A DNA stretch of 64,000 nt from Verrucomicrobiota bacterium (GTDB lineage: Bacteria > Verrucomicrobiota > Verrucomicrobiia > Limisphaerales > UBA11358). The position numbers were made by a program, and so were the translations under genes. The notes below the pieces were generated by a model. The model ran no database searches. It was not told the origin of the DNA and saw only the letters and a program-made list of their open reading frames with translations. Position 1 is the stretch's first letter, and every line of letters begins with the position of its first letter. Below, piece after piece: positions 31,858-59,435 of this stretch. The stretch is taken from NCBI GenBank assembly GCA_049511835.1, contig JBEKXN010000008.1, positions 42,090 through 106,089 on the forward strand, written 5' to 3'.

Positions 31858-31860
31858 CGT

Positions 31861-40881: not shown

Positions 40882-40945
40882 TCCTCGCGCCAATTAAAAA
40901 GCCACACGGCGACGCCGTGTGGCTGAATTTTGATCAGACTTGGTT

Positions 40946-43975: not shown

Positions 43976-44103
43976 AGGACAGGCGTCCCGCCTGTCTCCA
44001 TCTTCACGGATCCCACTCACCGATCAGTGACAGCTTATGGCAGCGACCATTCTTCCTGAAACAGAGGTTGTTGGATTTGAGAGACAGGCGGGACGCCTGT
44101 CCT
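43976..44103. repeat. 128-bp MITE-like element with 23-bp perfect terminal inverted repeats (family A)
   Basis: AGGACAGGCGTCCCGCCTGTCTC (43976-43998) is the exact reverse complement of 44081-44103. Each terminus is itself a hairpin, CAGGCG-TCCC-GCCTG. Lies between lysR and the redox cluster. Confidence 0.65.
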
Positions 44104-44310
44104 GCGATATGGATGCGCCTTCAGGCGACTTGCCGTAAGGTTTGTCCGGACCGCCTTGCCCCGCTCCCCTGACCACAGGGTTTTGCGCCGGTTTCCACCT
44201 TCCCCGGCCCCGCCGGCGCAGTATTGGCAAATGAAATGCTGTGTATTTACTAGTTGCGAAAAAAGTTATGGACATTGCGACCCGGTTCGGTTAAAATTTC
44301 GCCGGATTAT

Positions 44311-44370: not shown

Positions 44371-44811
44371 ATGACTCATCCCGCTGTGAAAACGTATGTT
44401 TTTTATTGCTCCAACCATCTGGCGGCCGGCCAGTTCGCCGGCCTTGGCCATGGTCCGGAGGGTGACACCATCAAGACCATCAGCCTGCCCTGCTCCGGCA
44501 AGGTGGATGTTCCCTATTTGATCAAGGCGTTTGAAACCGGCGCGGACGGTGTGGCGATTGTGACCTGCCCCAGGAACGAGTGCCGCCACTTCGAGGGCAA
44601 CCTGCGGGCGCACAAGCGCGCCGAGGCCGTTGAATCTTTGCTGGAGGAAATCGGACTGCCCGCAGGCCGGATGGCCGTATTTGAGTGCGGACAGCAGGAC
44701 GTCGGCCAGGTCCTCGGCGAAATCAGGCAGTTCATTGACCGGGTGAGAAATCTGCCCCCACCACCCGCCCGCAGCGACGCCGCCAATAAACAGGAGAGCA
44801 CGGTTGCATGA
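44371..44811 (+). CDS. mvhD: MvhD/FlpD-like (methyl-viologen-reducing hydrogenase delta subunit family) iron-sulfur protein
   Basis: VFYCSNHL...ISLPCSGKVDVPYLIKAFETGADGVAIVTCPRNECRHFEGNLRAHKR is the FlpD/MvhD signature. Confidence 0.8.
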   Translation: MTHPAVKTYVFYCSNHLAAGQFAGLGHGPEGDTIKTISLPCSGKVDVPYLIKAFETGADGVAIVTCPRNECRHFEGNLRAHKRAEAVESLLEEIGLPAGRMAVFECGQQDVGQVLGEIRQFIDRVRNLPPPPARSDAANKQESTVA

Positions 44812-45713
44812 AACCAGATAGCAAACTCGCAAAAAAAATTGACGCAGGAGATTTTATCGTCACCGCCGAGTGTGCGCCGGGCGCCACCGCGAACGGCGCC
44901 ACCACCGAAGCGGCATTGAAACTCCTCGACGGCAAACCGGTGGCCATCAACTTTCCTGACAACTCCCATGGCGTGGCGATCTCCTCGGTGGCCGCGGCGG
45001 TGGCGGCCATAAAACTGGGAGCCGAACCGATCCTCCAAATGGTCACCCGCGACCGGAACCGCATCGCCCTCCAGTCCGATTTGCTGGGCGCCGCCAGCCT
45101 GGGAATCAAGAATGTGCTTTGCATGACCGGCTATCACCAGATGCTGATCGGCTGTCCGGAATCCGCCAACGTTTTCGATGTGGATTCCTCCCAATTTATC
45201 GATCTGGCCACCCGGATGTCCGAAAACGGCGTTCTGGCCGACGGGACAAAATTTGACGGGCAATTTTCGATGCTGGTCGGGGCGGTGGCGAATCCGTTCC
45301 TGAAACCGTTGGATCTCAACCTGTTCCGGCTTGGTATAAAAATCGAAGCCGGCGCAAAATTTATTCAAACCCACGCAGTCTTTGACCTCGAGGCCTTCAG
45401 CCAATGGCTCGATGCTGTCCGCAAGGAGGGTCTCACCAAAAAGACGGCGATTTTGGCCGGTGTTTTTCCCTTGGCCAGCGCGGCGGAAGCCCAAAAGCTC
45501 CGTGACACTTACGCCGAATTTCGCATTCCGGACGAGGTCATTGAACGGCTGAAAAAAGCGGGTGATGCCGCTGCGCAGAAAAAGGAGGGAATCGCCATCT
45601 GCGCTGAAACCATCAAGCAGCTCAAGGCGCTCGAGGGTTTGCGTGGCATCCATATTCTATCGGGCGGCAAGGAGGCCTTGGTGCCGGAAATCCTGGCCGC
45701 CGCCGGACTGTAA
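44808..45713 (+). CDS. metF: methylenetetrahydrofolate reductase catalytic subunit (acetogen-type MetF)
   Basis: FIVTAECAPG...QMVTRDRNRIALQSDLLGAASLGIKNVLCMTGY...KFIQTHAVFD. ATGA overlap with the mvhD stop. Confidence 0.8.
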   Translation: MKPDSKLAKKIDAGDFIVTAECAPGATANGATTEAALKLLDGKPVAINFPDNSHGVAISSVAAAVAAIKLGAEPILQMVTRDRNRIALQSDLLGAASLGIKNVLCMTGYHQMLIGCPESANVFDVDSSQFIDLATRMSENGVLADGTKFDGQFSMLVGAVANPFLKPLDLNLFRLGIKIEAGAKFIQTHAVFDLEAFSQWLDAVRKEGLTKKTAILAGVFPLASAAEAQKLRDTYAEFRIPDEVIERLKKAGDAAAQKKEGIAICAETIKQLKALEGLRGIHILSGGKEALVPEILAAAGL

Positions 45714-45728
45714 TTACCGGGAGAAATC

Positions 45729-47129
45729 ATGCCGGAAAAATATCACATCAAAACCCAGCCGGTTCCGCCGCGGCGGCCGCGCATCGGCAAACATGGCGTG
45801 GTGGATTGGCGCGAAGACTGCGCCCGGTGTCATAACTGCGTCAAAAAAGCCTGCGTCTATGACCGCTACAAACAGGAGGTGGATTACATCCGCAATCTCA
45901 GCGACGTGGATGCGCTGTTTTTCGAGTGCATGGGGTGTTTTTCCTGCGTGCAGAATTGCACGAAGAACATCCTGTGCCTGTCCATCAATCCCGCCTACGA
46001 AAAACTCGGGAACAAATACTGGAAACCTGACATCATCAAAACGACCTGGCTTCAGGCTGAGACCGCAAAAATCCCGGTTTCGGGCGCGGGCTATCGCGGG
46101 CCGTTTTCCGGCCCGGGTTTTGATTCCATGTGGACGGACATGTCGGAAATCGTCCGGCCCACCCGCGACGGCATTCATGGACGCGAATACATCAGCACGT
46201 CGGTTGATATCGGCCGGAAGCCTTCGTATCTGTCGCTGAACGGGACCCAATCGCTCGCTAATCTGCCGCCGCTGGCTTCGCTTCCGATGCCGTTGATCAT
46301 TGATCTGAGTTCGCCGGCGCACACCTTGCCGAAGCTGGACCCGGCGATCGAACAGACCGCCGCCGGCACCGGCTTGATCGCCATCATGGATTCGCGTTAC
46401 CGGCCGGCGGACGAGGCCCACCTGAAAAACATTGCGTTTTACCTCGGCCCGGACAGTCCGCCCGTGCCGGACGCGATGCTGAAAAAGACCCGGCTGGTGG
46501 AAATTGCCGACAGCCCGGCGGTGGCGGAGCGCATCAAGGAAATCAAAAAGATCCATCCGCAAATCGTCGTCGCCATCCGCGTGGAACTGAGCACGGCGGG
46601 CATCGGGCGCGCCATCGAACTGGCCGGACAAGGCGAGGTCGAGGTGATTCACGTCGTGGCCGACGCCAACGGCAACGAATTGACGGCGCAAAAGCCGCGG
46701 TTTGTGAAGGACATGATCCGGCAGATCCACACCACGCTCATCGAGAAGGGCGTTCGGGATGAAATCACGCTCATGGCCGGCGGCGGCATCGCGCTGCCGG
46801 AACACATGGCCAAGGCCATCATCTGCGGCGCCGACCTGGTGACCATCAACCTGCCGCTGCTGGTCGCGCTGGAATGTCATCTCTGCGACAGTTGCCGGCC
46901 CGGCATGCCCTGTCCGGCCCGGCTCGAGAAAATTGACTCCCCATACGCCGTGGGCCGGATGACCAATTTGATCGCCGCGTGGCACGACCAGTTGATCGAG
47001 CTGATGGGCGCCATGGGCATGCGCGAGGCCCGCCGCCTGCGCGGCGATGTCGGCCGCGCCATGTTCTTCGAGAACCTCGAGGAGGAAACCTTCGGCAAAC
47101 TTTTCGGTGCCAGAAAGGCAGGGTTATGA
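45729..47129 (+). CDS. ferredoxin-domain plus degenerate GltB-FMN-domain-like protein (paralog A)
   Basis: Two Cys motifs, CARCHNCVKKAC and CMGCFSCVQNC. C-terminal GGGIALPEHMAKAIICGADLV...CHLCDSCRPGMPCP is like GltB domain 2, but the MSFGS and QGAKPG blocks are not visible. Confidence 0.6.
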   Translation: MPEKYHIKTQPVPPRRPRIGKHGVVDWREDCARCHNCVKKACVYDRYKQEVDYIRNLSDVDALFFECMGCFSCVQNCTKNILCLSINPAYEKLGNKYWKPDIIKTTWLQAETAKIPVSGAGYRGPFSGPGFDSMWTDMSEIVRPTRDGIHGREYISTSVDIGRKPSYLSLNGTQSLANLPPLASLPMPLIIDLSSPAHTLPKLDPAIEQTAAGTGLIAIMDSRYRPADEAHLKNIAFYLGPDSPPVPDAMLKKTRLVEIADSPAVAERIKEIKKIHPQIVVAIRVELSTAGIGRAIELAGQGEVEVIHVVADANGNELTAQKPRFVKDMIRQIHTTLIEKGVRDEITLMAGGGIALPEHMAKAIICGADLVTINLPLLVALECHLCDSCRPGMPCPARLEKIDSPYAVGRMTNLIAAWHDQLIELMGAMGMREARRLRGDVGRAMFFENLEEETFGKLFGARKAGL

Positions 47130-48685
47130 ACGTTACGAACGATATGAACGTTTTACCCGAAAATACGCTGAAGACGCGTGTGCCGCAGGAAAAAGTGGAC
47201 CGGGTCGTCAAACCCGCGCCGTCCCGCTATCGCAACGAGATCGCCAAATACATCGTCCATCGCAGCCTCGATTGCGAGCGCTGCGGCAAGTGCGTGGAGG
47301 TCTGCACCCACGGCGTCCACGTGCGGAAACCCGGCTTTGAATTTTTCGGCGAGCCCAACCATCACCTGTGCATCGGACCGGCCTGCGCAAAAAACGGGCA
47401 TTATTGCGTGGCCCAGTGCCCCAAACAGGCGCTCCAAATCCGAGAAAATCCCATGTACCGGGCGCTCGGTGATTTTCGCTGGTCGCCGGATTTGGTTTTG
47501 GCGACGTGGAAAATGGCCGAGACCGGCGAGGCGCCTTCTGAAGAATACGATTACAATTATGAGTGCGGCGATTCCGGCGGCGGCTTCGACAAGCTCCGGT
47601 TCAAATTCCCCAAGCAACCGCCGGTAAAAATCGCCGCGGACCAGATTGACACCAGCATCTCGCTGAACAAGCGCGATGATGGCCGGCCCAAGGTCAAAAT
47701 TGATGTTCCTTGGTATGGCGGTGGCATGTCGTTCGGGTCGGTCAGCAACGTGACCCAATTGTCAAAGGCCCGCGCGGCCGTGGCGTGGAACACGTTCACC
47801 TGCACCGGCGAGGGCGGTTACATGGAACGCATGCGGCCGTATGACGACCATATGATTACGCAGGTTGCCACGGGCCTTTTCGGTGTGCGCGAGGAAACCA
47901 TCCAGCGGGTGCCGATCGTGGAATTCAAGTATGCCCAGGGCGCCAAGCCCGGTCTGGGCGGCCATTTGCTCGGCGATAAAAACACCCCGGCCGTGGCCAG
48001 AATGCGCGAGACCGTCCTCGGCATATCGCTGTTTTCACCGTTCCCGTTCCATAGCGTCTATTCCATCGAAGATCACATGAAGCACATTGACTGGGTCAAG
48101 CATGTGAACCGGCGCGCCTTGATTTCAACAAAGGTTTCCACCCCCACGGACGTGGACATGGTTGCCGTGGGCAGCTATTCCGCCGGCACGCATATTGTCC
48201 ACATTGACGGCGGCTACGGCGGGACCGGCGCGGCGCCGGACATCGCCAAGAAGAACATCGCCATGCCCATCGAATACGCCATCGGCAAGGTGCACAATTT
48301 TCTCACGGATGAAGGCGTCCGCGACAAGGTGACGCTCATCGCCAGCGGCGGAATCCGCTCGGCCCACGACATCGCCAAGGCCATCGCCCTGGGCGCGGAC
48401 GGCGTGGTCGTCGGCACGGCGGAACTGGTCGCACTGGGATGTGTGCGGTGCAGCCTTTGCGCGAGCGGACGGGGTTGCCCGCGCGGCATCGCCACCACCG
48501 ATCCCGAGCTTTGCGGGAAAATGGATTTGGACTGGGGCACCCAGCGGCTGGTCAACCTTTACAGCGCCTGGCGCAAGACGCTGGTTGGAATTTTGCAGCG
48601 CCTGGGCCTCCGCAGCGTCGCCGAATTGCGCGGACGCACCGACCTTTTGATGCATTTGGATTACACCAACGAGGGCAAATCTTGA
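47126..48685 (+). CDS. archaeal-type glutamate synthase FMN-domain protein with N-terminal 2x[4Fe-4S] ferredoxin domain (paralog B)
   Basis: ORF 46979..48685 trimmed to ATG 47126 (ATGA overlap). CERCGKCVEVC, CVAQCP; GGMSFGSVS, KYAQGAKPGLGGHLLG, SPFPFHSVYSIEDH, IDGGYGGTGAAP, ASGGIRSAHDIAKAIALGAD, CVRCSLCASGRGCPRGI are canonical GltB domain-2 blocks. Confidence 0.8.
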   Translation: MNVTNDMNVLPENTLKTRVPQEKVDRVVKPAPSRYRNEIAKYIVHRSLDCERCGKCVEVCTHGVHVRKPGFEFFGEPNHHLCIGPACAKNGHYCVAQCPKQALQIRENPMYRALGDFRWSPDLVLATWKMAETGEAPSEEYDYNYECGDSGGGFDKLRFKFPKQPPVKIAADQIDTSISLNKRDDGRPKVKIDVPWYGGGMSFGSVSNVTQLSKARAAVAWNTFTCTGEGGYMERMRPYDDHMITQVATGLFGVREETIQRVPIVEFKYAQGAKPGLGGHLLGDKNTPAVARMRETVLGISLFSPFPFHSVYSIEDHMKHIDWVKHVNRRALISTKVSTPTDVDMVAVGSYSAGTHIVHIDGGYGGTGAAPDIAKKNIAMPIEYAIGKVHNFLTDEGVRDKVTLIASGGIRSAHDIAKAIALGADGVVVGTAELVALGCVRCSLCASGRGCPRGIATTDPELCGKMDLDWGTQRLVNLYSAWRKTLVGILQRLGLRSVAELRGRTDLLMHLDYTNEGKS

Positions 48686-48836
48686 CACCGCCACCAAACA
48701 ACTCCGTGCAAATGGGAACGCCGATTTCCAAATCGGCAGGCTCTGTGGTCATGAGTACGCAGGTGATGCCGGGTCGGAGCCCGGCGCTCCGGTGGCAGTG
48801 TCAAGATTCGCCCACCAACGACGTGCCGGCAAAAAA

Positions 48837-51563
48837 ATGAACAGTGAACTGATAAAACGGCTGGCCGGTTCCAGAAAACGACTGGCGGAAAGCCTCAACT
48901 ATTCTTCGGCCATCCGGAAGGAAGCGGAGGAGGGCGGCTGCGGTGTCGTCGGCTTCTGCTGCAGCGAACCGGTCGCCGGCCGGCATATTTACGAACCATC
49001 ATGCCAGATGCACAACCGCGGGAATGGCAAGGGCGGCGGCATCGCGGCGGTGGGACTCGTCCCGGAACAGCTCGGTGTCAGCCGGGAGGTGCTCGACAGC
49101 CATTACCTGCTGCACGTGGCGTTCATTGACACGAAGGTGCGCCCGGAAATCGAGGAACAATATATTACGCCGTTCTTCGACATCGCCGCCTCCGCGCAAC
49201 TCGACAAGGTCGCTGACTGGAAATCCGTGCCGGGCCTGGAGGTGTTGCCGCCCGATGTCTGCCGTTACTTTGTCCGCGTCAAGCCACCGGTGCTCGATAA
49301 GTTCATTGCGAAAAACCATCTGCAACAACTCGACCGCAGCGAGGCGGAGGACGAATTCGTCAACCAGAACAGCTTCAATCTCAATCAAAAATATTACGCG
49401 TCACTGGGCGAAAAGCGGGCCTTCGTGCTCTCGCATGGCCGGGACATCATGATCCTCAAGGTGGTCGGTTATGCCGAAGCCATCGTGAAGTATTACAAAA
49501 TCGAGGAGCTGTGCGCCCACGAATGGATTGCGCACCAACGGTTCCCCACCAAGGGCCGCGTCTGGCATCCCGGCGGCGCCCATCCGTTTGCGGCCATTGA
49601 CATGGCGCTGGTGCACAACGGCGACTTCGCCAATTACCATTCGGTGACCGAATATCTCAAACAGCGCCACATCTATCCGCAGTTCCTCACCGACACGGAA
49701 GTGTCCGCGCTGTTGTTCGACCTGCTCACCCGGACCTATCATTATCCGCTGGAGCATATCATCGAGGCGCTCGCGCCCACCACGGAACTGGACTTCGACC
49801 GGCTCGCCCCGGAGAAGCAAAAGATTTACCGGGCCATTCAAGCCACCCATATCCACGGCTCGCCCGATGGTCCGTGGTTTTTCATCATCGCCCGCAACCT
49901 GGCCCGCCAGAAGCAATTCCAGTTGATGGGCATCACCGACACCGCGATGCTCCGGCCCCAGGTGTTCGCCTTCTGCGACGGCGAAGTCCAGGTGGGTCTG
50001 ATTGCCTCGGAAAAACAGGCCATCGACGCCACGCTGTTGAGTCTCTCGAAGGATGACAAACGCATCTGCCCCGTGGCGGACCGCTACTGGAACGCGCGCG
50101 GCGGCAGCCATAACGACGGCGGAGCGTTCATTTTCAATCTCCAAAAAAATCCGGCCGGCAAAATCCGGATTTCCTGCACGGACAAATTCGGCAAACCGGT
50201 CCCCATGCCGGGTGGAACCGAGTCCTGCGATTTTTCAAGGGATGTAGCCATACAAACCGACGGTAGGAGCCGAGGTAACGAGGCTTCTCCAGGAAAATCA
50301 GAGCCTCCTCACGTCGGCTCCTACAGTCTGGAAAGCACGCTCAACGAGAAACTGGCCGCCGGCAACAGCATGACGGCCTTTGAATGGATGCGCGGCCAGC
50401 TTCCGAAATGGACATTCGACGAATTCCGCGCCGCGTGCCGGCAGATGGCCGACGCGGCAAAAGATCCCGCCAAGACCGCCACCGCCATCGAGATCTTTGC
50501 GCTGCTCAACGACCGGCACTACTCGACCGGCGCCAAGAAACGCAGCCACGTTCTGCATGTCATCCACACTGAGTTGAGCCGGCTGCTCGGCAGCCTCCCC
50601 CACATCGGTTCAAAGGATGCCGGCAAGAGCGCGTTCCGGCTCATTGATTTCGCGACGCGCGGCGATCTGCGGCCGCCGCAGGAAAACGAAACCACGCTGG
50701 TCATTGACGCCGCCCACTTCCCGCCGGAAGGCAACGACTGCGACGCCGCCCTGCTCGTGGACGCCTTCATGAAAGGCTGGCGGCATTTCATCAGCTTCAA
50801 TTGCATCGGCCAGCGTTATATCAGCTGCGGCCTCGGACCGGAAACCGCCGATGTGACCATCGAGGTTTACGGCAGCAGCGGCGATTATCTGGGTTCCGGC
50901 ATAGACGGGCTGACCATCACGGTGCATGGCAACGCCCAGGACCAGTTGGGCCAGATCATCAAAGAGGGAAAAATGGTCGTCCATGGCGACGTCGGCCAGA
51001 CGTTCATGTACGGCGCCAAAGGCGGCGCGGTCTATGTGCTCGGCAACGCGGCCGGCCGGCCGCTCATCAATTCCGTCGGCAAACCCCGCGTGGTCATCAA
51101 TGGCACCTGCCTCGACTTTCTGGCCGAGTCCTTTATGGCCGGCGACCCCAATCGCGGCGGCGGTTTCGTCATCTTGAACGGGGTCAAATTCGACGATGAA
51201 GGAAAACTGGTTCCCCTGCCCGAGCCGTATCCGGGCAGCAACCTGTTCTCGCTGGCCTCGGGCGGCGCGATTTTTGTCCGCGACCCCGGCAAGACCATGG
51301 TCAATGAGCAGTTGAACGGTGGTCAGTTTGCCAAGCTGACCGATGACGACTGGGAATTGATTCTGCCGTACCTTGAAGAAAACCAGAAACTTTTCGGCAT
51401 CACCGTTGAACAGCTTTTGACCGTGAACGGCAAACGGTTCAAGCCGTGCCAGGTCTATCGCAAGGTCATTCCCGGCAACATCAAGGCCATCGCCGCCGAG
51501 GACACCGACGATGTCATGGCTGAAGAGCTGGTTGAAGCCGAAGCCGAACTGGCCGCGAAGTAA
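48837..51563 (+). CDS. fusion of class-II (Ntn) glutamine amidotransferase-like domain and GXGXG (GltB domain 3 / FwdC-like) domain
   Basis: ORF trimmed to ATG 48837. About 37-aa pro-sequence, then CGVVGF...NRGNGKGGGIA...HQRFPTKG...HNGDFANY (GATase-2). C-terminal VYGSSGDYLGSGIDGLTITVHGNAQDQLGQIIKEGKMVVHGDVGQTFMYGAKGGAVYVLGNAGRP (GXGXG). The two halves are joined by a repeat-derived linker. Confidence 0.75.
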   Translation: MNSELIKRLAGSRKRLAESLNYSSAIRKEAEEGGCGVVGFCCSEPVAGRHIYEPSCQMHNRGNGKGGGIAAVGLVPEQLGVSREVLDSHYLLHVAFIDTKVRPEIEEQYITPFFDIAASAQLDKVADWKSVPGLEVLPPDVCRYFVRVKPPVLDKFIAKNHLQQLDRSEAEDEFVNQNSFNLNQKYYASLGEKRAFVLSHGRDIMILKVVGYAEAIVKYYKIEELCAHEWIAHQRFPTKGRVWHPGGAHPFAAIDMALVHNGDFANYHSVTEYLKQRHIYPQFLTDTEVSALLFDLLTRTYHYPLEHIIEALAPTTELDFDRLAPEKQKIYRAIQATHIHGSPDGPWFFIIARNLARQKQFQLMGITDTAMLRPQVFAFCDGEVQVGLIASEKQAIDATLLSLSKDDKRICPVADRYWNARGGSHNDGGAFIFNLQKNPAGKIRISCTDKFGKPVPMPGGTESCDFSRDVAIQTDGRSRGNEASPGKSEPPHVGSYSLESTLNEKLAAGNSMTAFEWMRGQLPKWTFDEFRAACRQMADAAKDPAKTATAIEIFALLNDRHYSTGAKKRSHVLHVIHTELSRLLGSLPHIGSKDAGKSAFRLIDFATRGDLRPPQENETTLVIDAAHFPPEGNDCDAALLVDAFMKGWRHFISFNCIGQRYISCGLGPETADVTIEVYGSSGDYLGSGIDGLTITVHGNAQDQLGQIIKEGKMVVHGDVGQTFMYGAKGGAVYVLGNAAGRPLINSVGKPRVVINGTCLDFLAESFMAGDPNRGGGFVILNGVKFDDEGKLVPLPEPYPGSNLFSLASGGAIFVRDPGKTMVNEQLNGGQFAKLTDDDWELILPYLEENQKLFGITVEQLLTVNGKRFKPCQVYRKVIPGNIKAIAAEDTDDVMAEELVEAEAELAAK
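50263..50324. repeat. REP-like inverted repeat embedded in frame in the interdomain linker of the GATase-GXGXG ORF
   Basis: GTAGGAGCCGAGGTAACGAGGCT ... AGCCTCCTCACGTCGGCTCCTAC (20 of 23 complementary), translated as ...DGRSRGNEASPGKSEPPHVGSYS... Confidence 0.6.
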
Positions 51564-51618
51564 AGAACGTAAATGCGAATAAATTCAACCATCAAGATCG
51601 CAACGCAGCGCGGGCATT

Positions 51619-51727
51619 CCCCTCGCCCCACAGCGCAGCGCGGGGAGAGGGTCAGGGAGAGGGGATTTTTTAAAACGTGCCACCTCTCCCCGGCCCTCTC
51701 CCCCAACTTCGTTGGCGGAGAGGGAGA
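51619..51727 (+). terminator. two GC-rich hairpins, the first followed by a T-run: possible internal terminator/REP between GATase-GXGXG gene and hdrC
   Basis: CCCCTC...GAGGGG-ATTTTTT (51619-51671), then CCCTCTCCCCCAAC-TTCG-TTGGCGGAGAGGGAG (51694-51726). Confidence 0.4.
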
Positions 51728-51808
51728 TCATATCGAGTACTGGTCCGAGAATATCGGCGCTCCACAATTCCTGCGATCGGCGAAATTTTTACACTCCATC
51801 GGAACCGG

Positions 51809-53256: not shown

Positions 53257-53289
53257 ACGCGCATAAAATTCTAACGACGCATTTGGGTT

Positions 53290-53436
53290 GGGGAGCGCGG
53301 GCGTCTCGCCCGCGGTTTTCGGCCTCTGGCCGGAAACATTTCGCACCCTGCAACCGGAACCTTTTGGTATGGCATGCCGGTGCAGTAAACAGTCGGCGGG
53401 ACACCGACTGCGGCGACCGGGACGGTCGCGCTCCCC
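53290..53436. repeat. 147-bp MITE-like element (family A) between hdrB and hdrA-like gene
   Basis: GGGGAGC-GCGGGCGTCTCGCCCGC ... GCGACCGGGACGGTCGC-GCTCCCC. Hairpin at each end, closing GGGGAGC/GCTCCCC stem. Confidence 0.65.
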
Positions 53437-53476
53437 TTCTTCAACTGAATTCGCTCCGACTTAGACAGGTCATGAT

Positions 53477-56400
53477 ATGCAGCAAACCATCATGAGTAAA
53501 TCCGACGGCAAAAAAATTGGCGCGGTGCTGGTGCAAGGCGGCGGCATTGCCGGCGTCCAGGCCTCGCTCGACCTCGCCAACAGCGGCTTCAAGGTCTATC
53601 TCGTCGAGCGCGACGGCGCCATCGGCGGCATGATGGCGCATCTGGACAAGACATTTCCGACCGGCGACTGCGCCACCTGCATCGTCTCGCCCAAACTCGT
53701 CGAATGCGCGCGGAACCTGAACATCGAAATCATGACCCTTTCGGAAGTGACCGGTCTGGAAGGCGAACCCGGTCATTTCACCGCCACGGTCAAGCGGCAT
53801 CCGCGCTATGTCATCGAGGACAAATGCACCGGTTGCAGCGAATGCACGCAGGTCTGCCCCGTGGACATTCCGGACGAGTTCAACCGTTGTCTCGGCACCC
53901 GCAAAGGCATCGCCAAACTTTACGCCCAGGCCACCCCGAACATTTTCGGCATCCTCAAAAATGGCCACTCACCCTGTAAAATGACGTGCCCGGCCCGGGT
54001 GAACGTCCAGGGTTACGTCCAGCTCATCAAGCAAAAGGAATATCTCAAGGCCGTCGAACTCGTCCGCCAGCGGAATCCGCTGTCGGCCATCTGCGGCCGC
54101 ATCTGCACCCATCCCTGCGAGTCTGAATGCATGCGGGGCAAGGCCGACGATCCCATCGCCATCCGCCTGCTGAAACGGTTCGCCTCGGACAAGGAAATGG
54201 AACTGCTGGCGGCGGGCAAACTCACCTTGCCGGAGGAAAAAACTCCCGCGCCAGACGCCAAAAAGGTGGCCGTCATCGGCGGCGGCCCGGCTGGACTCAC
54301 CGCGGCCAACGACCTGGCCGACGCCGGATTCGCCGTCACCGTCTATGAAGCGATGGCCGCCGCGGGCGGCATGCTGCGCTACGGCATTCCCGGATATCGC
54401 CTGCCCAAGAAGGTGCTCGACCACGAAATCGAAATCATCCGCCGCAAGGGCGTCAAGTTCTTCTATAACTGCCGCATTGGCCGGAACGTCACCATCGAGA
54501 CGCTCCAGTCGGTTTATGCCGCGATCTTCATTTCCGCCGGCGCCCAGAAGAGCCGCAAACTCCGCGTGGAAGGCGAGAACATCAAGGGCGTGTTGCACGG
54601 CATTGAATTTCTCCGGGACGCCGGCTCGGCCCATAAACCCGCGGTGAAAGACCGGGTGCTGGTCATCGGCGGCGGCAACGTGGCGGTGGACGTTGCCCGG
54701 ACCGCCCTGCGCCTGGGCGCAAAAAATGTCGAGATGATTTGTCTCGAACAGCGGCACGAGATGCCCGCTTACAAGGAGGAAATCGAAGCGACCCTCGCCG
54801 AAAACATCAAAATCCGAAACGGCTGGGGCCCCAAACGCATCCTCGGCAACGGCTCCGTCACCGGCATCGAGCTGAAACGTTGCACCCGGGTTTTTGACAG
54901 CCAGAAACGGTTCAGCCCGACCTTCGACGAAAACAATCTAACGACGATTGAAGCGGACCAGATTATCGTGGCCATCGGCCAGGCAGTGGATGAGGAACTG
55001 GTCAGCCACATCAAGATCCAAAACGAACGGGGCTGTTTCAAGGCCGACAAGGTCACCGGCCAGACTTCCGTGCTCAGCATTTTTGCCGGGGGCGACAATG
55101 CCTCGGGTCCCGCGTCCGTCATTGATGCCGTCGCCGCCGGCAAACGGGTCGCCGAATCCATCGAACGTTATTTGAAAGGCAAGGACCTGCTCGGCGGCCG
55201 GTTCGAGGATTCGCTTCGCCCGCTTCCGCCGGCGTTCCTGCCCACGCTCGACAAGCTGGAGAAAAAATCCCGGCCCCATGCCGCGGAACTGGCCCCGGCC
55301 AGCCGCCTGAACAATTTTGACGAGGTCGAAAAAGGACTCACCGAGGAGCAAGCCCTCGCGGAGGCCGCGCGTTGCCTGAATTGCGCGCTGTGCTCGGAAT
55401 GCAACCGGTGCGTCGAAACCTGCAAGCAGCACGCCATTGACCACGCCATGCGCGAGCAGACGGTCAAGCTCGAGGTGGGCTCGGTCATCCTGACTCCGGG
55501 TTTCAAGGAGTTCGATGCCCGGCGCAAAGGTGAATTCGGTTATGGCCGCTATGACAACGTCGTCACCAGCGTCCAGTTTGAACGGATGCTTTCCGCCGCC
55601 GGCCCGTTCGAAGGCCATGTCATCCGCCTGTCCGACGGCCGCGAGGCGAAGCGCATCGGCTGGATTCAATGCGTCGGTTCGCGCGATGCGTCGTGCGGGA
55701 ACGATTATTGTTCCTCCATCTGCTGCATGATGGCCACGAAACAGGCGCTCGTCGCCGGCGACCACGTCCACGACCTGGACGCGACGATTTTCTACATGGA
55801 CATCCGCGCCCACGGCAAGGATTTCGACCAGTATTACGAGCGCGCCCGGGCGCAGAAACACATCCATTACCTCAAGAGCATTCCGTCCCGGATTGTCCAA
55901 GTGCCCGGCAGCAAGGACCTGCGCGTTTCGTTCATTGACGAGAACAGCCGGCTGCAGCAACAAGATTTCGACCTCATCGTCCTGTCCGTGGGCATGGAAC
56001 CGGCGAACGGCCTCGCGGACCTGGCCTCCCGTCTGGACATCAAGCTCAACCAGTTCGGCTTCTGCGACACCGACCGGCTCCTGCCGCTGTCCACCTCGCG
56101 GCCCGGCGTGTTCGTCGGCGGCGCGGTGCAGGAACCCAAGGACATTCCCGAGACCGTCACCCAAGCCAGCGCCGCGGCGTCCATGGCCATGGAACTGCTC
56201 GCGCCGGCGCGCAACACGCTCATCACCAAAAAGAGTTATCCCACCGAGCATGACGTGGCTGATGAAGCCCCGCGGCTCGGCGTCTTTGTCTGTCACTGCG
56301 GCATGAATATCGCGTCGGTCGTGGACGTGGAGGCGGTGGTCAAACGCATCGAGCACGAACCGGACGTGGTTCTGGCGAACCACACCATGTTCACCTGCGC

Positions 56401-58018
56401 CGACACCAGCCTGTCCAACATCAAGGACATGATCCATCAACACCGGCTCAACCGCATCGTCGTCGCCTCCTGCACGCCGCGCACGCACGAGCCGCTGTTC
56501 CGCGAAACCCTGCGCGAAGCCGGGCTGAACCCCTATCTGTTCGAAATGGCCAACATCCGCGACCAATGTTCCTGGGTGCATTCCGCCGTGCCGCAATCCG
56601 CCACCGAAAAGGCGGTTGAACTCGTGAAAATGTCCGTCGCCCGCGCGCGCACGCTTTCGCCGCTGGAAGGCGGAACGCTCACGGTGGACCAGACCGGCAT
56701 TGTCATCGGCGGCGGACTGAGCGGCATGACCGCCGCCCTGGCGCTGGCCGACCAGGGATTCAACGTCCATCTGGTGGAACAAAGTGACCGTTTGGGCGGG
56801 ACCCTGCACGATATTCATCGCACCTTCGAGCACGATGACATCGCCGCCTTCACCCGCGGCCTCATTGACAAGGTCCAGAAACATCCGCGCATCAAGTCCT
56901 ACCTGGAAGCCGAAATCACCGGCATCAAGGGTCACATCGGCAAGTTTGCCGTGACGCTCGCCAAGGGCGGCGCGAGCTTTGAAATTTCCGGCGGCGCCAT
57001 CATCGTGGCCACCGGCGCGCAAGCGGCCAAGACCACCGACTTTTTATACGGCAAATCCGACCGGGTCCTGACCCAGGTCGAACTGGAACAACGGTTGCAC
57101 GACAAGACCTGGCCCGCGAAGGGACAAAACATCGTCATGATCCAGTGCGTCGGCTCGCGCAACGAAAAGCATCCGTATTGCAGCCGCATCTGCTGCTCGA
57201 TGGCCGTCAAAAACGCATTGGACATCAAGAAACTAGACCCCGACGCCAATGTCTATGTGCTTTACCGCGACGTCCGGACCTACGGCTTCCGGGAAATTTA
57301 CTATCAGCAGGCGCGCGAGGCTGGGGTGGTCTTCATCCGCTACTCGCCGGAAGCGCCGCCGCAGGTGGCCGACAATAACGGCCTGGTCGTCACGCTCAAA
57401 AGTCCCGACCTTCCCGACACGCTGGCGATCGAAGCCGACAACGTCGTGCTCAGCACCGGAGTGGAAGTGGATTTGAAGAACAACAAGCGCGTCTCGGACA
57501 TGCTCAAGGTGCCGCTCAACGCCGATGGATTCTACGTGGAAGCCCACATGAAACTGCGGCCCGTGGATTTCACCACCGAAGGCATCTTCCTCTGCGGCCT
57601 GGCCCATTCGCCGAAGTTCATTGACGAAAACATTTCGCAGGCGCGCGCCGCCGCCGCGCGGGCGGCCACCGTCCTGTCCAAAACGCAGCTCGATGTCAGC
57701 GCCCAGGTCTCGTACGTGGACCAGCAGAAGTGCATCTCCTGCATGACCTGCGTCACGGTTTGTCCGTATTCCGCGCCTTACTGCAACAAGGACGGCAAGG
57801 GCCAGATCGAAGCCGCCAAGTGCATGGGCTGCGGCATTTGCGCCGCCGAATGTCCGGCCCGCGCCATCCAGTTGCATCATTTCGAGACCGACCAGTTCGA
57901 GGTGATGATCAAGGCGTTGCTCGCCGGGGAAGATTTGGAAAACGTCAGCAACGTAAGCCACGGCAAGAACGGCAACGGTCAGCCCCGCCAGGGCATCCGG
58001 TTAATGGCCCCGAATTGA
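53477..58018 (+). CDS. hdrA: 1513-aa HdrA-type flavoprotein megafusion: HdrA module with inserted GltD/NfnB-like NAD(P)H:FAD/Fe-S module, followed by a second HdrA module (HdrL-type)
   Basis: GAVLVQGGGIAGVQASLDLA...FPTGDCATCI (HdrA). CPARVNVQGY...CGRICTHPCESEC, VAVIGGGPAGLTAANDL, VLVIGGGNVAVDVA (GltD-like). CLNCALCSECNRC. WIQCVGSRD...CSSICC. VFVCHCGMNI. Second GIVIGGGLSGMTAALAL...IQCVGSRNEKHPYCSRICC...CISCMTCVTVCP...CMGCGICAAECP. Confidence 0.85.
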   Translation: MQQTIMSKSDGKKIGAVLVQGGGIAGVQASLDLANSGFKVYLVERDGAIGGMMAHLDKTFPTGDCATCIVSPKLVECARNLNIEIMTLSEVTGLEGEPGHFTATVKRHPRYVIEDKCTGCSECTQVCPVDIPDEFNRCLGTRKGIAKLYAQATPNIFGILKNGHSPCKMTCPARVNVQGYVQLIKQKEYLKAVELVRQRNPLSAICGRICTHPCESECMRGKADDPIAIRLLKRFASDKEMELLAAGKLTLPEEKTPAPDAKKVAVIGGGPAGLTAANDLADAGFAVTVYEAMAAAGGMLRYGIPGYRLPKKVLDHEIEIIRRKGVKFFYNCRIGRNVTIETLQSVYAAIFISAGAQKSRKLRVEGENIKGVLHGIEFLRDAGSAHKPAVKDRVLVIGGGNVAVDVARTALRLGAKNVEMICLEQRHEMPAYKEEIEATLAENIKIRNGWGPKRILGNGSVTGIELKRCTRVFDSQKRFSPTFDENNLTTIEADQIIVAIGQAVDEELVSHIKIQNERGCFKADKVTGQTSVLSIFAGGDNASGPASVIDAVAAGKRVAESIERYLKGKDLLGGRFEDSLRPLPPAFLPTLDKLEKKSRPHAAELAPASRLNNFDEVEKGLTEEQALAEAARCLNCALCSECNRCVETCKQHAIDHAMREQTVKLEVGSVILTPGFKEFDARRKGEFGYGRYDNVVTSVQFERMLSAAGPFEGHVIRLSDGREAKRIGWIQCVGSRDASCGNDYCSSICCMMATKQALVAGDHVHDLDATIFYMDIRAHGKDFDQYYERARAQKHIHYLKSIPSRIVQVPGSKDLRVSFIDENSRLQQQDFDLIVLSVGMEPANGLADLASRLDIKLNQFGFCDTDRLLPLSTSRPGVFVGGAVQEPKDIPETVTQASAAASMAMELLAPARNTLITKKSYPTEHDVADEAPRLGVFVCHCGMNIASVVDVEAVVKRIEHEPDVVLANHTMFTCADTSLSNIKDMIHQHRLNRIVVASCTPRTHEPLFRETLREAGLNPYLFEMANIRDQCSWVHSAVPQSATEKAVELVKMSVARARTLSPLEGGTLTVDQTGIVIGGGLSGMTAALALADQGFNVHLVEQSDRLGGTLHDIHRTFEHDDIAAFTRGLIDKVQKHPRIKSYLEAEITGIKGHIGKFAVTLAKGGASFEISGGAIIVATGAQAAKTTDFLYGKSDRVLTQVELEQRLHDKTWPAKGQNIVMIQCVGSRNEKHPYCSRICCSMAVKNALDIKKLDPDANVYVLYRDVRTYGFREIYYQQAREAGVVFIRYSPEAPPQVADNNGLVVTLKSPDLPDTLAIEADNVVLSTGVEVDLKNNKRVSDMLKVPLNADGFYVEAHMKLRPVDFTTEGIFLCGLAHSPKFIDENISQARAAAARAATVLSKTQLDVSAQVSYVDQQKCISCMTCVTVCPYSAPYCNKDGKGQIEAAKCMGCGICAAECPARAIQLHHFETDQFEVMIKALLAGEDLENVSNVSHGKNGNGQPRQGIRLMAPN

Positions 58019-58047
58019 AAATGAGCGTTCAAAGACATTTTGGAATT

Positions 58048-58195
58048 GGGGAGCGCGACCGTCCCGGTCGCTCCAGTTGGCGTCTCGCCGACTGGTTTTT
58101 GCGGATGAGCACCAGCTCTAACAATTCTTTCGGGTTGTGGAGGGAAATTTGCGGCCGGAGGCCGCAAATTGCGAGCGGGACGCCCGCGCTCCCCC
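58048..58195. repeat. 148-bp MITE-like element (family A) between hdrA-like gene and second mvhD
   Basis: GGGGAGC-GCGACCGTCCCGGTCGC ... GCGAGCGGGACGCCCGC-GCTCCCCC. Internal perfect hairpin AATTTGCGGCC-GGA-GGCCGCAAATT. Followed by (CTCTGCGT)x3 at 58208-58231. Confidence 0.65.
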
Positions 58196-58244
58196 AATCA
58201 ATTACGCCTCTGCGTCTCTGCGTCTCTGCGTTAAATTCGATTGC

Positions 58245-58727
58245 ATGAACACCCAAACTTTTGAACCCAAAATCCTGGCCTTTTGCTGCCACTATTGCGC
58301 CTATTCGTCGGCGGATCTGGCGGGGGTCATGCGCATCCAGTATCCGCCCAATGTGCGCATCATCCGCACCCCCTGCACCGGCCGGCTGGAGACCGAATAC
58401 TTCATGAAGGCCTTGGAGAACGGCGCGGACGGCGTGCTCGTGGCGGGTTGTCTGGAAGGTGGCTGCCATTTCGTGGAAGGCAATCTCTGCGCCAAACGCC
58501 GGGTCAATTACACCCGCGACCTGCTGGAAGAAATCGGCATCGAAAAGGAACGCCTCCGCATGGTCAACATTTCCGCCGCCATGGCGCGGCCATTGGCGGA
58601 CGTCATCACCGACATGGTGGAAACAATACGCAAACTGGGACCAAACCCAATAAGGAAGGCTGAAGTCCAAAGCCCAATGTCCAAGGTCCAAAGTCCACAG
58701 CCCACAGTCCGGAGCCTAAAGTCCTAA
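58245..58727 (+). CDS. mvhD: MvhD/FlpD-like iron-sulfur protein, second copy
   Basis: ORF trimmed to ATG 58245. ILAFCCHYCAYSSADLAG...IIRTPCTGRLETEYFMKALENGADGVLVAGCLEGGCHFVEGN. The last 25 aa or so are encoded by a simple-sequence tract. Confidence 0.8.
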   Translation: MNTQTFEPKILAFCCHYCAYSSADLAGVMRIQYPPNVRIIRTPCTGRLETEYFMKALENGADGVLVAGCLEGGCHFVEGNLCAKRRVNYTRDLLEEIGIEKERLRMVNISAAMARPLADVITDMVETIRKLGPNPIRKAEVQSPMSKVQSPQPTVRSLKS

Positions 58728-58758
58728 CTACTAACTGCTAGCTGCCAACTACTAACTC
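58664..58758. repeat. simple-sequence tracts: degenerate (A/C)AGTCC units, then CTAACTN heptamers x5
   Basis: AAGTCCAAAGCCCAATGTCCAAGGTCCAAAGTCCACAGCCCACAGTCC...AAAGTCC followed by CTAACTA CTAACTG CTAGCTG CCAACTA CTAACTC. Spans the mvhD2 3' end and the gap before metV. Confidence 0.6.
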
Positions 58759-58766
58759 CCAATTTT

Positions 58767-59435
58767 ATGATCGTCGCACAAAGAAAAAACATACCCGAAC
58801 TGCTGGACATCGTTGGTAAACACCGGAAGGTGCTCCTGCTCGGCTGCGGCACCTGCGTGACCGTCTGTCTGGCCGGCGGCCAGCGCGAAGTCGGCATCAT
58901 CGCCTCCGCCCTGCGCATGGCGGCCAAATTGAAAGGCCGCCCCCTGGAAGTCGAGGAACTCACCATCGAACGCCAGTGCGACAACGTCTTCCTCGAACAA
59001 GCCGCCGATGCCATCAAGCAAAACGACTGCGTGCTGTCCATCGGCTGCGGCGCCGGTGTGCAGGCCATCGCCGAGCGATTCGCCAACAAACCGGTTTATG
59101 CCGGGCTGAACACCGCGTTCATCGGCATCCTGGAAGAACGGGGCGTCTGGACGGAAAAATGCGCCGCCTGCGGCGAATGTGTGCTGCATCTCTACGGTGG
59201 CATCTGTCCCATCACCCGGTGTGCGAAGAAAATGATGAACGGCCCGTGCAGCGGTTCCCGAGAGGACCGATGCGAAGTCAGTCCCGACCGACCCTGCGCC
59301 TGGCAATTGATTTACAAACGCCTGAAAGACATCGGCCAGTTAGACCGCCTGAAAGAGCACAAGAAACCCAAGAACTGGCAGCCGAGCCTCTCCGGCGGTT
59401 TCCGTAAAATAATTAGAGAAGACCACAGAGTTTAA
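58767..59435 (+). CDS. metV: MetV-type methylenetetrahydrofolate reductase small (Cys-rich, MTHFR_C-like) subunit
   Basis: LLLGCGTCVTVCLAGG...SIGCGAGVQ...CAACGECVLHLYGGICPITRCAKKMMNGPCSGS...CEVSPDRPCAW. Confidence 0.75.
   Translation: MIVAQRKNIPELLDIVGKHRKVLLLGCGTCVTVCLAGGQREVGIIASALRMAAKLKGRPLEVEELTIERQCDNVFLEQAADAIKQNDCVLSIGCGAGVQAIAERFANKPVYAGLNTAFIGILEERGVWTEKCAACGECVLHLYGGICPITRCAKKMMNGPCSGSREDRCEVSPDRPCAWQLIYKRLKDIGQLDRLKEHKKPKNWQPSLSGGFRKIIREDHRV

Follow-up and report, generated by a model that had tools for sequence, protein, structure and literature searches.

A conserved ten-gene cluster joining glutamate synthase modules to Hdr, MvhD and MetFV-type subunits: a candidate Hdr-coupled glutamate synthase

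Glutamate synthase (glutamine:2-oxoglutarate amidotransferase, GOGAT) is the main gate through which nitrogen enters biomass, and the electron sources known for it are NADPH, NADH, ferredoxin and F420. The methylene-tetrahydrofolate (methylene-THF) reductase MetFV-HdrABC-MvhD of Moorella thermoacetica, built on a heterodisulfide reductase (Hdr) core, was reportedly described by Mock and colleagues in 2014. It is held to be electron-bifurcating, its physiological partner and second acceptor being unidentified (PMC5861303). HdrL proteins have also been described (PMC2702500, PMC5947623), as have type III HdrA proteins, in which a GltD-type insert lies at the ferredoxin exit of HdrA (PMC12054007). 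Here we analyse a cluster of ten genes that brings components of these systems together. It occupies positions 44371-59435 of a stretch of 64,000 nucleotides, hereafter the window, from a Verrucomicrobiota bacterium of the Limisphaerales (assembly GCA_049511835.1, contig JBEKXN010000008.1, positions 42,090 to 106,089).

The genes, g1 to g10, encode in order an MvhD-like protein, a MetF-like flavoprotein, three GltB-like proteins (g3, g4 and g5), HdrC-like and HdrB-like proteins, an HdrL-type HdrA with a GltD-type insert, a second MvhD-like protein and a MetV-like protein (Table 1). We read the cluster as a nitrogen-regulated, multi-subunit glutamate synthase that would be fed through an Hdr-type flavin and iron-sulphur (Fe-S) core and not through a simple GltD subunit; we give this reading about an even chance of being correct. 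A narrower version, in which the ten subunits form a flavin-based electron-bifurcating glutamate synthase that recovers the energy of the GOGAT reaction as reduced ferredoxin and uses a MetF-derived relay, is possible and is offered tentatively. In either form the complex looks to be derived from a MetFV-HdrABC-MvhD methylene-THF reductase. An earlier note on this DNA had suggested either a supercomplex coupling NAD(P)H, the methylene-/methyl-THF couple and 2-oxoglutarate amination, or an enzyme of the N-methylglutamate (NMG) synthase type, MgsABC.

Conservation and composition of the cluster

Relatives of the cluster were collected in two independent scans. Patterns from g3 were matched against one genome per GTDB species, which confirmed 579 of the 600 stretches listed, and the best 80 loci were retained; metagenome contigs were searched with MetV (g10), which gave 80 further loci and a total of 160. 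All are metagenome-assembled genomes (MAGs) or metagenome contigs, and the taxon labels, which come from the MAG bins, may be in error. Gene order in the 80 genome loci was determined by tblastn with all window proteins. Genes g1-g2-g3-g4-g5-g6-g7-g8 lie on one strand in 80 of 80, as far as the DNA extends. In the 80 metagenome loci g10 was always preceded by g9, g8, g7, g6, g5 and g4 wherever DNA was present, and g9 came directly after g8 in every locus where this was visible. Six loci (L029, L076, L120, L123, L129 and L132) are circularly permuted to g5-g6-g7-g8-g9-g10-g1-g2-g3-g4; all ten genes are retained, and metV, mvhD and metF are set side by side, giving the run hdrCB-hdrL-mvhD-metV-mvhD-metF. 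This order is like the hdrCBA-mvhD-metVF order of Moorella and may be the ancestral one.

The same genes are thus found in order, or in circular permutation, in 160 of 160 loci. An arrangement so far beyond chance disposes of the possibility, raised in the earlier note, that the juxtaposition is fortuitous, and confirms a conserved, co-inherited unit of ten genes. Estimated median intergenic gaps in the relatives are 20 nt or less at every junction. The pairwise-identity matrices of g2 to g7 are correlated (rho 0.64-0.90), indicating that the genes have travelled together. In a comparison of 52 loci no pair of g4 proteins falls below 69% identity, even across phyla. In g3, g4 and g5, 36-48% of positions reach a conservation of 95% or more (36% for g3, in 80 orthologues). 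The operon is among the gene sets most conserved across phyla that we have met here.

Record titles carry eight phylum labels: Verrucomicrobiota, Planctomycetota (Sedimentisphaerales, Phycisphaerales and Pirellulales), Desulfobacterota/Thermodesulfobacteriota (Syntrophales, Smithella and Syntrophorhabdus), Chloroflexota (Dehalococcoidia), Spirochaetota/Leptospirales, Bacteroidota, Ignavibacteriota and FCPU426. The carriers are anaerobic bacteria, abundant in MAGs from peat, fen, wetland, lake sediment and groundwater; GTDB species representatives account for at least 579 matches, and the protein clusters run into the thousands. The closest relatives are Limisphaerales/Verrucomicrobiota MAGs from bogs; the same sequence is also present on a Joint Genome Institute (JGI) peat metagenome contig. 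The Verrucomicrobiota window shares 82-87% identity with L074, a MAG that bears a delta-proteobacterial label. Such identity across phyla is unusually high and points either to mis-binning or to a recent lateral spread between anaerobes of wetlands.

To judge from their sequences, g3 to g5 and the GltD-type module of g8 cover all the parts of a glutamate synthase, with predicted glutaminase and 2-oxoglutarate/flavin mononucleotide (FMN) sites intact. All the GltB modules listed in the earlier note are present, in a somewhat different arrangement: the degenerate FMN-domain paralogue, g3, precedes the catalytic g4, and the amidotransferase and GXGXG modules, given there as separate or fused, form a single 908-residue protein, g5. 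The glutaminase part of g5 aligns to the GlmS glutaminase domain, its segments IAHQRFPTKG, VHNGDF and LTDTEV corresponding to R73, N98-G99 and D123. The nucleophile is Cys35, after a leader of 34 residues, and the motif EEGGCGVVGFC is invariant in 61 orthologues. Putative processing would remove the leader to expose Cys35; GltB and PurF likewise have a leader removed before the nucleophile Cys. The GXGXG part of g5 (Pfam 2.6e-16, residues 655-827, or 670-842 in the longer 923-residue open reading frame (ORF) that was scanned) is closest to FwdC and to a GXGXG protein of Subdoligranulum.

The synthase subunit, g4, aligns to residues 853-1170 of Azospirillum brasilense GltB with about 35% identity over the FMN domain, and is 31-34% identical to the other GltB-type FMN proteins and to the MgsC compared. 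In the numbering of the Synechocystis ferredoxin-dependent glutamate synthase (Fd-GltS), which was checked directly, g4 and its orthologues keep Q969, K972, R992, S1011 and E1013. We take E1013 to be the residue of loop 4 through which the glutaminase site and the synthase site are coupled, a role reportedly assigned to a loop-4 Glu by Dossena and colleagues in 2007. The FMN motifs GGTGAAP and GGIR..D are also carried. Leu stands at the position of E975, His at that of Q978, and FHS replaces HHD before the YSIED loop; the GltB-type FMN subunit of Subdoligranulum, which has the same ferredoxin-domain architecture, has Ile and His at 975 and 978. Where GltB has C1102, C1108 and C1113 of its 3Fe-4S site, g4 has the four-Cys motif GCVRCSLCASGRGCP (Cx2Cx2Cx5CP). 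The absence from g4 of the 'catalytic' Glu of GMSxGAxSxEAH was considered as a meaningful loss and dropped, since the Subdoligranulum GltB-type protein and MgsC lack this Glu too.

Proteins g3 and g4 are paralogues over their full length, with 25% identity. The entire segment from QGAKPG to YSIED is missing from g3, as is GGTGA, and all three Cys motifs are kept (two N-terminal CxxCxxCxxxC motifs and Cx2Cx2Cx5CP). It is probably non-catalytic and would serve as an Fe-S scaffold or in electron transfer, a role that recalls the central domain of GltB, itself weakly similar to the FMN barrel (secondary matches).

The HdrL-type protein, g8, could be mapped domain by domain onto the HdrA of M. thermolithotrophicus. 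Residues 17-159 correspond to HdrA 146-288, comprising the start of the flavin adenine dinucleotide (FAD) domain and the inserted ferredoxin domain. A GltD/NfnB-like NAD(P)H-FAD-2x[4Fe-4S] insert of 477 residues (160-636) follows, between HdrA positions 288 and 291, and residues 637-849 supply the rest of the HdrA core (HdrA 291-504). This mapping bears out the earlier view that the GltD-type module is built into the HdrA polypeptide. A second HdrA-like unit occupies residues 930-1484; in it residues 930-1081 match HdrA 2-153, a Rossmann region follows, and residues 1338-1479 match HdrA 503-647, the C-terminal ferredoxin domain. Both hallmarks of HdrL or type III HdrA are found, a GltD-type module that follows the inserted ferredoxin domain and mvhD as the next gene downstream. 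We also considered g8 as a tandem HdrA pseudo-dimer, an idea that was down-weighted in that the second unit has neither the inserted ferredoxin domain nor the flavin-proximal Cys.

The insert is most like the Nfn/Stn-type module (9bov_A, 9n5u_A (NfnA), 8oh5_C and 4ylf_B) and less like GltD proper. Its nucleotide loop, GGGNVAVD...CLEQRH, has Glu at the position for NADPH specificity, where NADPH-specific relatives have Arg-Arg, and NADH is a reasonable guess for its nucleotide. No NfnA partner domain (PyrK-like, with 2Fe-2S and FAD) was found by Pfam in the ten proteins, the NfnB-like module inside HdrL being the sole part. In g7 the CCG cysteines are conserved in 59 orthologues.

The MetF-like g2 was compared with human MTHFR, with the MetF of an acetogen (Acetoanaerobium, in a Wood-Ljungdahl cluster, L089) and with a Paracoccus MetF encoded beside a methyltransferase system (L090). 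The E. coli MetF sequence was a fourth reference only, beside these three database-derived ones. The motif is RGD in human MTHFR and TGD in the acetogen and Paracoccus proteins, (T/R)GD overall when E. coli is included; g2 reads TGYHQ. Trimmer and colleagues are said to have found in 2001 that D120 of E. coli MetF, the Asp of this motif, binds the pterin and is required for the folate half-reaction. Among 76 g2 orthologues the folate-Asp position is Tyr in 62, Phe in 11, His in two and Thr in one, and Asp in none. The equivalent of E. coli Gln183 drifts as well (Gln in 39, His in 29, Ser in five, others in the remainder). An exhaustive search of 1.84 billion representatives found the GYHQ form confined to the g2 clade among the 150 best matches; the other best matches mostly read (T/S)GD, and a further set has other replacements. 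These data suggest that g2 probably does not work as a methylene-THF reductase; descent as a flavin subunit from a MetFV-Hdr ancestor is more likely. Its partner g10 is a normal MetV, which aligns with the MetV of Acetoanaerobium and of Paracoccus and keeps the Cys motifs; a PDB sequence search with MetV gave no match.

MetF-like proteins without the catalytic Asp occur elsewhere in the public library too (P0130, P0135, P0143, P0146, P0147, P0162, P0165, P0192, P0199, P0200, P0217, P0240 and P0245), with SGTHQ, TGRHQ, SGNHQ and TGLHQ motifs. This suggests that a broader group within the MTHFR family may not act on folate.

Nitrogen context and competing readings

Flanking ORFs of the genome loci were clustered and their identities confirmed by Pfam. 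The recurrent upstream neighbours are a GAF-AAA+ sigma-54 activator (16 loci), an NrpR-family repressor (nine), an ammonium transporter (Amt) with PII (seven), an aminotransferase (seven), a class-I amidotransferase (six), glutamate dehydrogenase (GDH; three) and CarA (three). Among NCBIfam models the activator scores best with NifA (498 bits; cut-off, 529). In the metagenome loci, NrpR, GlnA, a NifA-like activator and GDH are encoded downstream of g10. At strict thresholds, a NifA-like sigma-54 activator, NrpR, Amt, PII, GlnA or GDH is carried by 37 of the 107 loci with at least 3 kb of flank. Under a relaxed pattern, 12 of 77 loci have sigma-54-type -24/-12 sites (TGGCACGACTTTGGCA and similar) at a distance of 110-380 nt upstream of g1, as compared with 0.3 expected; the strict sigma-54 pattern gave one site and the NrpR operator pattern GGAA-N6-TTCC none, so that no NrpR operator was identified. 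No gene for CooS, Fhs, FchA, AcsC/D/E, MttB, a corrinoid protein or a methyl-THF:corrinoid methyltransferase was found within 10 kb in the 160 loci. The cluster keeps the company of the glutamine synthetase (GS)-GOGAT regulon, and not that of C1 metabolism. This context favours the view that the g3-g5 trio would act as a true glutamine:2-oxoglutarate amidotransferase.

Palindromes of the type CCGAAATTCGG / CCGAATTTCGG stand about 100-170 nt upstream of g1 in the Spirochaetota and Leptospirales loci L053 and L055; they are possible operator sites.

In the mechanism that we propose, g5 would hydrolyse glutamine at its processed N-terminal Cys, and the ammonia would pass to g4, where 2-oxoglutarate would be aminated and the imine reduced by FMN. 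Electrons would reach that FMN by way of the Fe-S clusters in g4 and g3. NAD(P)H would deliver the reducing power to HdrL, at its GltD/NfnB-like insert, and the HdrA flavin, HdrC and HdrB, the two MvhD proteins and the MetV/MetF-like flavoprotein would provide the remaining electron paths. By our own estimate, in which the GDH and glutaminase equilibria are summed, the NAD(P)H-driven GOGAT reaction yields about -50 kJ/mol with NADPH. With so exergonic a reaction and a core of the HdrA/NfnB kind, which is bifurcating, we infer a possible coupling in which 2 NAD(P)H, oxidized ferredoxin, glutamine and 2-oxoglutarate would give 2 NAD(P)+, reduced ferredoxin and 2 glutamate. The driving force would be used at the HdrA or the NfnB-like flavin to push the second electron pair onto ferredoxin, in parallel with the role assumed for methylene-THF in the Moorella complex. 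The GltB-like module would now be the exergonic acceptor, and the MetF-like subunit, its folate Asp gone, would survive as a flavin relay.

Several points weigh against this glutamate synthase reading. In about two thirds of the loci the flanks out to 10 kb contain no nitrogen gene, and the lineage of the window has the LysR regulator only. Two loci (L133 and L134) carry a second, conventional split GOGAT, so that the cluster is not simply 'the' GOGAT. The position of the GltD insert at the ferredoxin exit means that NAD(P) could be the acceptor rather than the donor, and the intact CCG motifs of HdrB would fit a disulfide substrate and not a pure relay. Some residual or altered folate chemistry is possible in g2, which keeps the equivalent of Glu28 and the flavin-binding framework. 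An AlphaFold2 model of g5, built with 37 homologues that are all at least 77% identical, has a mean predicted local distance difference test score of 50.7, below 50 in the amidotransferase half, and is too poor for a test of the fold. Complex formation, the electron paths, bifurcation and the role of MetF and MetV are all things that we infer.

The supercomplex of the earlier note, taken in full, would turn over methylene-/methyl-THF at MetF as well as glutamine and 2-oxoglutarate at GltB; in its variants the two would be alternative exergonic acceptors, or methyl-THF oxidation would be pulled by GOGAT with NAD+ reduced through the GltD insert. Part of this proposal stands, in that the unit does join Hdr, MvhD and MetFV parts to the GltB modules and a GltD-type module. 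The THF leg can draw on g2 as a clear MTHFR member (8.6e-30) that shares the Glu28 equivalent and the TRDRNRIALQ and AGA-FIQT framework with acetogen MetF, on a canonical MetV, on the use of MetVF for methyl-THF oxidation beside methyltransferases in Paracoccus, and on the GltD insert at the ferredoxin-exit domain of HdrA, which suits NAD+ as the uphill acceptor. This leg is weakened, however, by the replacement of the folate-binding, catalytic Asp in 76 of 76 orthologues, by the drift at the Q183 position and by the absence of folate, Wood-Ljungdahl and methyl-transfer genes from the 160 loci, whose context is nitrogen assimilation, and we consider the full scheme unlikely. Loss of the Asp also makes an independent reductase unlikely, which bears on a different explanation, that two separate enzymes are merely co-transcribed: an Hdr-coupled MetFV-type reductase (g1, g2 and g6-g10) and a split ferredoxin-type glutamate synthase (g3-g5). 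Each half does resemble a stand-alone system (the Moorella-type hdrCBA-mvhD-metVF set on the one hand, the split GOGATs of L133/L134 and of Subdoligranulum, L088, on the other), and the ferredoxin domain of g4 could itself take electrons from free ferredoxin. Yet the GltB genes lie between metF and hdrC in every locus, the permutation moves g1-g4 as a block behind g10 without separating the sets, start/stop overlaps and near-zero gaps span the supposed boundary, the evolutionary rates of the halves are correlated, and neither half was seen alone among the 160 loci. Two enzymes are, on this evidence, very unlikely.

The remaining explanations change the substrate. In one, the trio would act on another 2-oxo acid or imine, or HdrB on a disulfide, in an Hdr-type reductase loosely tied to nitrogen metabolism. 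The Leu, His and FHS replacements in g4, its low identity to the compared GltB-type FMN proteins and MgsC, the intact CCG sites of HdrB and the other GOGAT close by in L133 and L134 are all in keeping with it. Against this, the residues contacting 2-oxoglutarate (K972, R992, S1011 and Q969) and the coupling E1013 are all kept, the Subdoligranulum protein, taken as a conventional split-GOGAT FMN subunit, shares the Ile/His pair at 975/978, and NrpR and PII/Amt neighbours are typical of a GS-GOGAT regulon; we hold another substrate to be distinctly unlikely. The second hypothesis of the earlier note, an MgsABC-type enzyme handling methylamine and passing the methyl group to THF at MetF, was examined against the NMG locus of a Paracoccus plasmid (L087), which carries mgsA, mgsB (glxC), mgsC, gmaS and mgdABCD. 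MgsABC has the same three domain types as the trio, the N-terminus of g5 matches Paracoccus MgsA (33% over 105 residues), and an Amt gene is present in the NMG locus too. Other features count against it. MgsC has no Cys cluster motif and reads TGPDD where g4 and the GOGATs read YSIED. By BLASTP, g4 matches a split-GOGAT FMN subunit at 1e-79 as compared with 4e-27 for MgsC, and the GXGXG part of g5 matches the split-GOGAT partner at 7e-21 as compared with 4e-8 for MgsB, the amidotransferase part being uninformative. No Mgd homologue was found in any of the 160 loci, and the sole GmaS-like matches (about 33% identity, five loci) share their loci with GlnA matches and are read as those ordinary glutamine synthetase genes. 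NMG synthase, moreover, is redox-neutral and has no need for Hdr, and g2 is without the folate-binding Asp; we regard the hypothesis as highly improbable.

Coordinates, intergenic gaps and flanking genes

The ten co-oriented genes described in the earlier note agree with the ORF list, with Pfam and NCBIfam searches and with the public gene calls for the contig, and profile searches placed every ORF in the family expected from its domain calls. The ATGA start/stop overlaps at 44808, 47126 and 52393 are exact; the start of g9 is at 58245 and not 58244. Gene g1 is the first of the cluster in all standard-order loci, and the genes downstream of g10 are unrelated to it.

Table 1. Coordinates of the cluster genes, the adjoining regulator gene and the palindromic elements in the window
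Feature	Position	Strand	Remarks
LysR-family regulator	42942..43853	-	divergent; Pfam HTH_1 and LysR_substrate; adjoins the cluster also in L080 and L015
REP/MITE-like palindrome	43973-44106		long intergenic gap
g1, MvhD-like protein 1, 146 aa	44371..44811	+	Pfam FlpD 2.9e-25; divergent copy, 30% identity to g9
g2, MetF-like flavoprotein, 301 aa	44808..45713	+	Pfam MTHFR 8.6e-30; without the folate-binding Asp
g3, GltB-FMN-domain paralogue, 466 aa	45729..47129	+	Pfam: partial Glu_synthase only (C-terminal half of the profile)
g4, catalytic GltB-type synthase subunit (predicted), 519 aa	47126..48685	+	2x[4Fe-4S] ferredoxin domain, then FMN TIM barrel; Pfam Glu_synthase 9e-90
REP/MITE-like palindrome	48673-48813		g4-g5 gap region
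g5, fusion of class-II N-terminal nucleophile (Ntn) glutamine amidotransferase (GATase) and GXGXG beta-helix, 908 aa	48837..51563	+	Pfam GATase_6 and GXGXG
Imperfect palindrome, g5-g6 gap	51631..51714		32-nt arms, 78% complementary; T-run inside the loop
g6, HdrC-like, 2x[4Fe-4S], 195 aa	51809..52396	+	Pfam Fer4_17/Fer4_8, NCBIfam CoB_CoM_SS_C; both Cys motifs conserved
g7, HdrB-like, two CCG domains, 287 aa	52393..53256	+	Pfam CCG x2, NCBIfam CoB_CoM_SS_B 1.3e-62
REP/MITE-like palindromic insert, g7-g8 gap	53278..53436		inverted repeats I1 and I2 pair with 58030-58212; median gap of relatives about 18 nt
g8, HdrL-type giant HdrA with GltD-type insert, 1513 aa	53477..58018	+	domain mapping onto 5odc_A
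REP/MITE-like palindromic insert, g8-g9 gap	58030..58212		terminator-like hairpin at 58073-58095; insert absent from relatives
g9, MvhD-like protein 2, 160 aa, canonical copy	58245..58727	+	Pfam FlpD 3.7e-50
g10, MetV-like Cys-rich subunit, 222 aa	58767..59435	+	Pfam DUF5981 / MTHFR C-terminal 4.2e-37; last cluster gene
(REP, repetitive extragenic palindrome; MITE, miniature inverted-repeat transposable element.)

Long gaps within the operon (151, 245, 220 and 226 nt) are peculiar to the lineage of the window, the gaps of relatives being near zero. The core of the palindromes, GGGGAGCGCGnnCGTCCCG, occurs in four copies, as two inverted pairs bracketing hdrL; the insert between g7 and g8 is lineage-specific and no part of the system. 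The terminator suspected at 51619-51671, which would have split the operon, turned out to be a lineage-specific palindrome with its T-run in the loop. It was not called by the terminator scan, and the g5-g6 gap of relatives is about zero (approximately -8 nt). In the promoter and terminator scan, counts were at the level of shuffled sequence; the single good terminator-like hairpin, 58073-58095, lies inside the lineage-specific insert between g8 and g9. An Rfam scan of 40000-60500 gave no riboswitch and only sub-threshold miRNA-like matches on the 51.6-kb palindrome.

Both flanking genes named in the earlier note, the divergent LysR gene and a stand-alone Glu_synthase gene, are present, and the latter is placed here on the minus strand. 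It encodes a protein of 505 residues (40946-42463) without the Fe-S Cys motif and with a large insertion in the QGAK loop; it adjoins the LysR gene in L080 and has a 50% relative in L041, and the plus-strand ORF at 40940-42664 is merely its shadow. LysR is a candidate regulator of the cluster in the Verrucomicrobiota lineage. Its identification as a GltC orthologue was considered and rejected, the NCBIfam match being weak and below the cut-off. Directly downstream of metV, the cluster gives way to a small HTH_37/Gp49 toxin-antitoxin-like pair and an ORF6N-domain gene (59961-60938, minus strand). In L133 and L134 the region 3-6 kb downstream of g10 encodes a class-II GATase of 376 residues starting MC..., a ferredoxin-domain GltB of 544 residues with QGAKPGDGG and a NifA-like activator. 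Elsewhere in the window, an ordinary giant surface protein of 2108 residues, unrelated to the cluster, is encoded at 23364-29690 on the minus strand; it contains Ig I-set, RCC1, SBBP beta-propeller and DUF7948 repeats, and BamA and DnaB genes lie downstream of its gene (29401-33387).

Significance and comparison with known systems

If the cluster does encode an Hdr-coupled glutamate synthase, a further class of electron supply would be added to those known for this enzyme. Bifurcation, if true, would make nitrogen assimilation energy-conserving for fermenters and syntrophs living near the thermodynamic limit; it would also be the first case in which a reaction of nitrogen assimilation drives an Hdr-type bifurcase, and would illustrate how MetFV-HdrABC-MvhD complexes can exchange their exergonic acceptor. 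As a natural variant with a different terminal reductase, the cluster offers a new handle on the wiring of the Moorella-type core. Annotation pipelines scatter the operon over 'glutamate synthase-related', 'ferredoxin', 'Hdr' and 'MTHFR' entries, and the Asp-less MetF-like proteins are a caution against scoring every MTHFR-family match as a Wood-Ljungdahl or folate enzyme in metagenomic surveys.

The component families are all known, and their combination is undescribed in the searchable literature. The earlier note knew of no characterized enzyme uniting these modules; in keeping with this, no paper with GltB-like genes inside an hdr/metFV cluster was found in searchable full text, outside which subscription-only papers fall. 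In Candidatus Smithella cisternae, gene 437_38 is listed under GS/GOGAT and again at the head of an 'Hdr/Flox' cluster, 437_38:51 (PMC5606693), which is probably the same operon, unrecognized.

Among systems with an Hdr core, HdrL of Desulfobacterium autotrophicum and Syntrophobacter fumaroxidans and the type III HdrA of anaerobic methanotrophic archaea (ANME-1) and Bathyarchaeota share with g8 the GltD-type insert, the extra thioredoxin-reductase-like unit and the adjacent mvhD. The described HdrL loci adjoin dsr, fdh, por or hdrABC; GltB-like or MetFV genes have been reported beside none of them. Fdh-Hdr-Fmd of Methanospirillum hungatei (7bkb) and Mvh-Hdr (5odc) have an HdrABC-MvhD core wired to a terminal enzyme with a GXGXG subunit (FmdC/FwdC), and their HdrA and GXGXG parts are the best PDB matches of the cluster proteins. 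Fdh-Hdr-Fmd differs in being archaeal, in a terminal enzyme that reduces CO2 with low-potential electrons and in having the heterodisulfide as high-potential acceptor. NfnAB, NfnABC and StnABC contain the NADPH-FAD-2x[4Fe-4S] subunit with bifurcating FAD that is most like the HdrL insert (9n5u_A, 8oh5_C, 4ylf_B and 5jca_L); here there is no NfnA/PyrK-like partner, and the module is an insert in HdrA.

Among systems with GltB-type modules, MgsABC of Paracoccus has GATase-like, GXGXG and FMN-binding Glu_synthase domains in common with the cluster. It differs in an MgsC without the Fe-S motif or YSIED, in its linked gmaS and mgdABCD and in its redox-neutral reaction; the split GOGATs resemble g4 and g5 more closely than it does. 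The split 'archaeal-type' GOGAT (L133/L134 and Subdoligranulum, L088) has the same FMN subunit architecture, an N-terminal ferredoxin domain and TIM barrel with the four-Cys motif; the QGAKPG(I/L)GGH variant is common to both, and the glutaminase and GXGXG modules are likewise apart from the FMN subunit. It differs in sequence (31-34% identity), in having no Hdr, MvhD or MetFV partners and no g3 paralogue, and in that GATase and GXGXG are unfused. GltBD of A. brasilense (1ea0, 2vdc and 6s6s) and ferredoxin-GltS of Synechocystis (1llw and 1ofd) have the same four GltB functions, namely the Ntn glutaminase, the FMN synthase site, a central domain of which the TIM-barrel paralogue is reminiscent, and the GXGXG beta-helix; the residues of the synthase site and of coupling are shared, and a GltD-type module is present too. 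In the cluster, by comparison, the modules are distributed over three proteins with GATase and GXGXG fused, the GltD module is embedded in HdrA, extra 2x[4Fe-4S] domains stand on the FMN subunit and its paralogue, and the cluster motif has four Cys instead of three.

The Moorella MetFV-HdrABC-MvhD complex, which is soluble, rich in flavin and Fe-S and presumed to be NADH-bifurcating, has the same parts MetF, MetV, HdrA, HdrB, HdrC and MvhD (PMC5861303). As compared with it, the cluster described here has three inserted GltB-type genes, a 1513-residue HdrL with a GltD/NfnB insert and a second HdrA unit, two MvhD proteins, a MetF without the catalytic Asp, and a nitrogen-assimilation rather than a Wood-Ljungdahl context. 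Since the defining Asp of MetF is absent, the predicted complex is not a member of the Moorella-type reductases; its membership of the glutamate synthases is probable.

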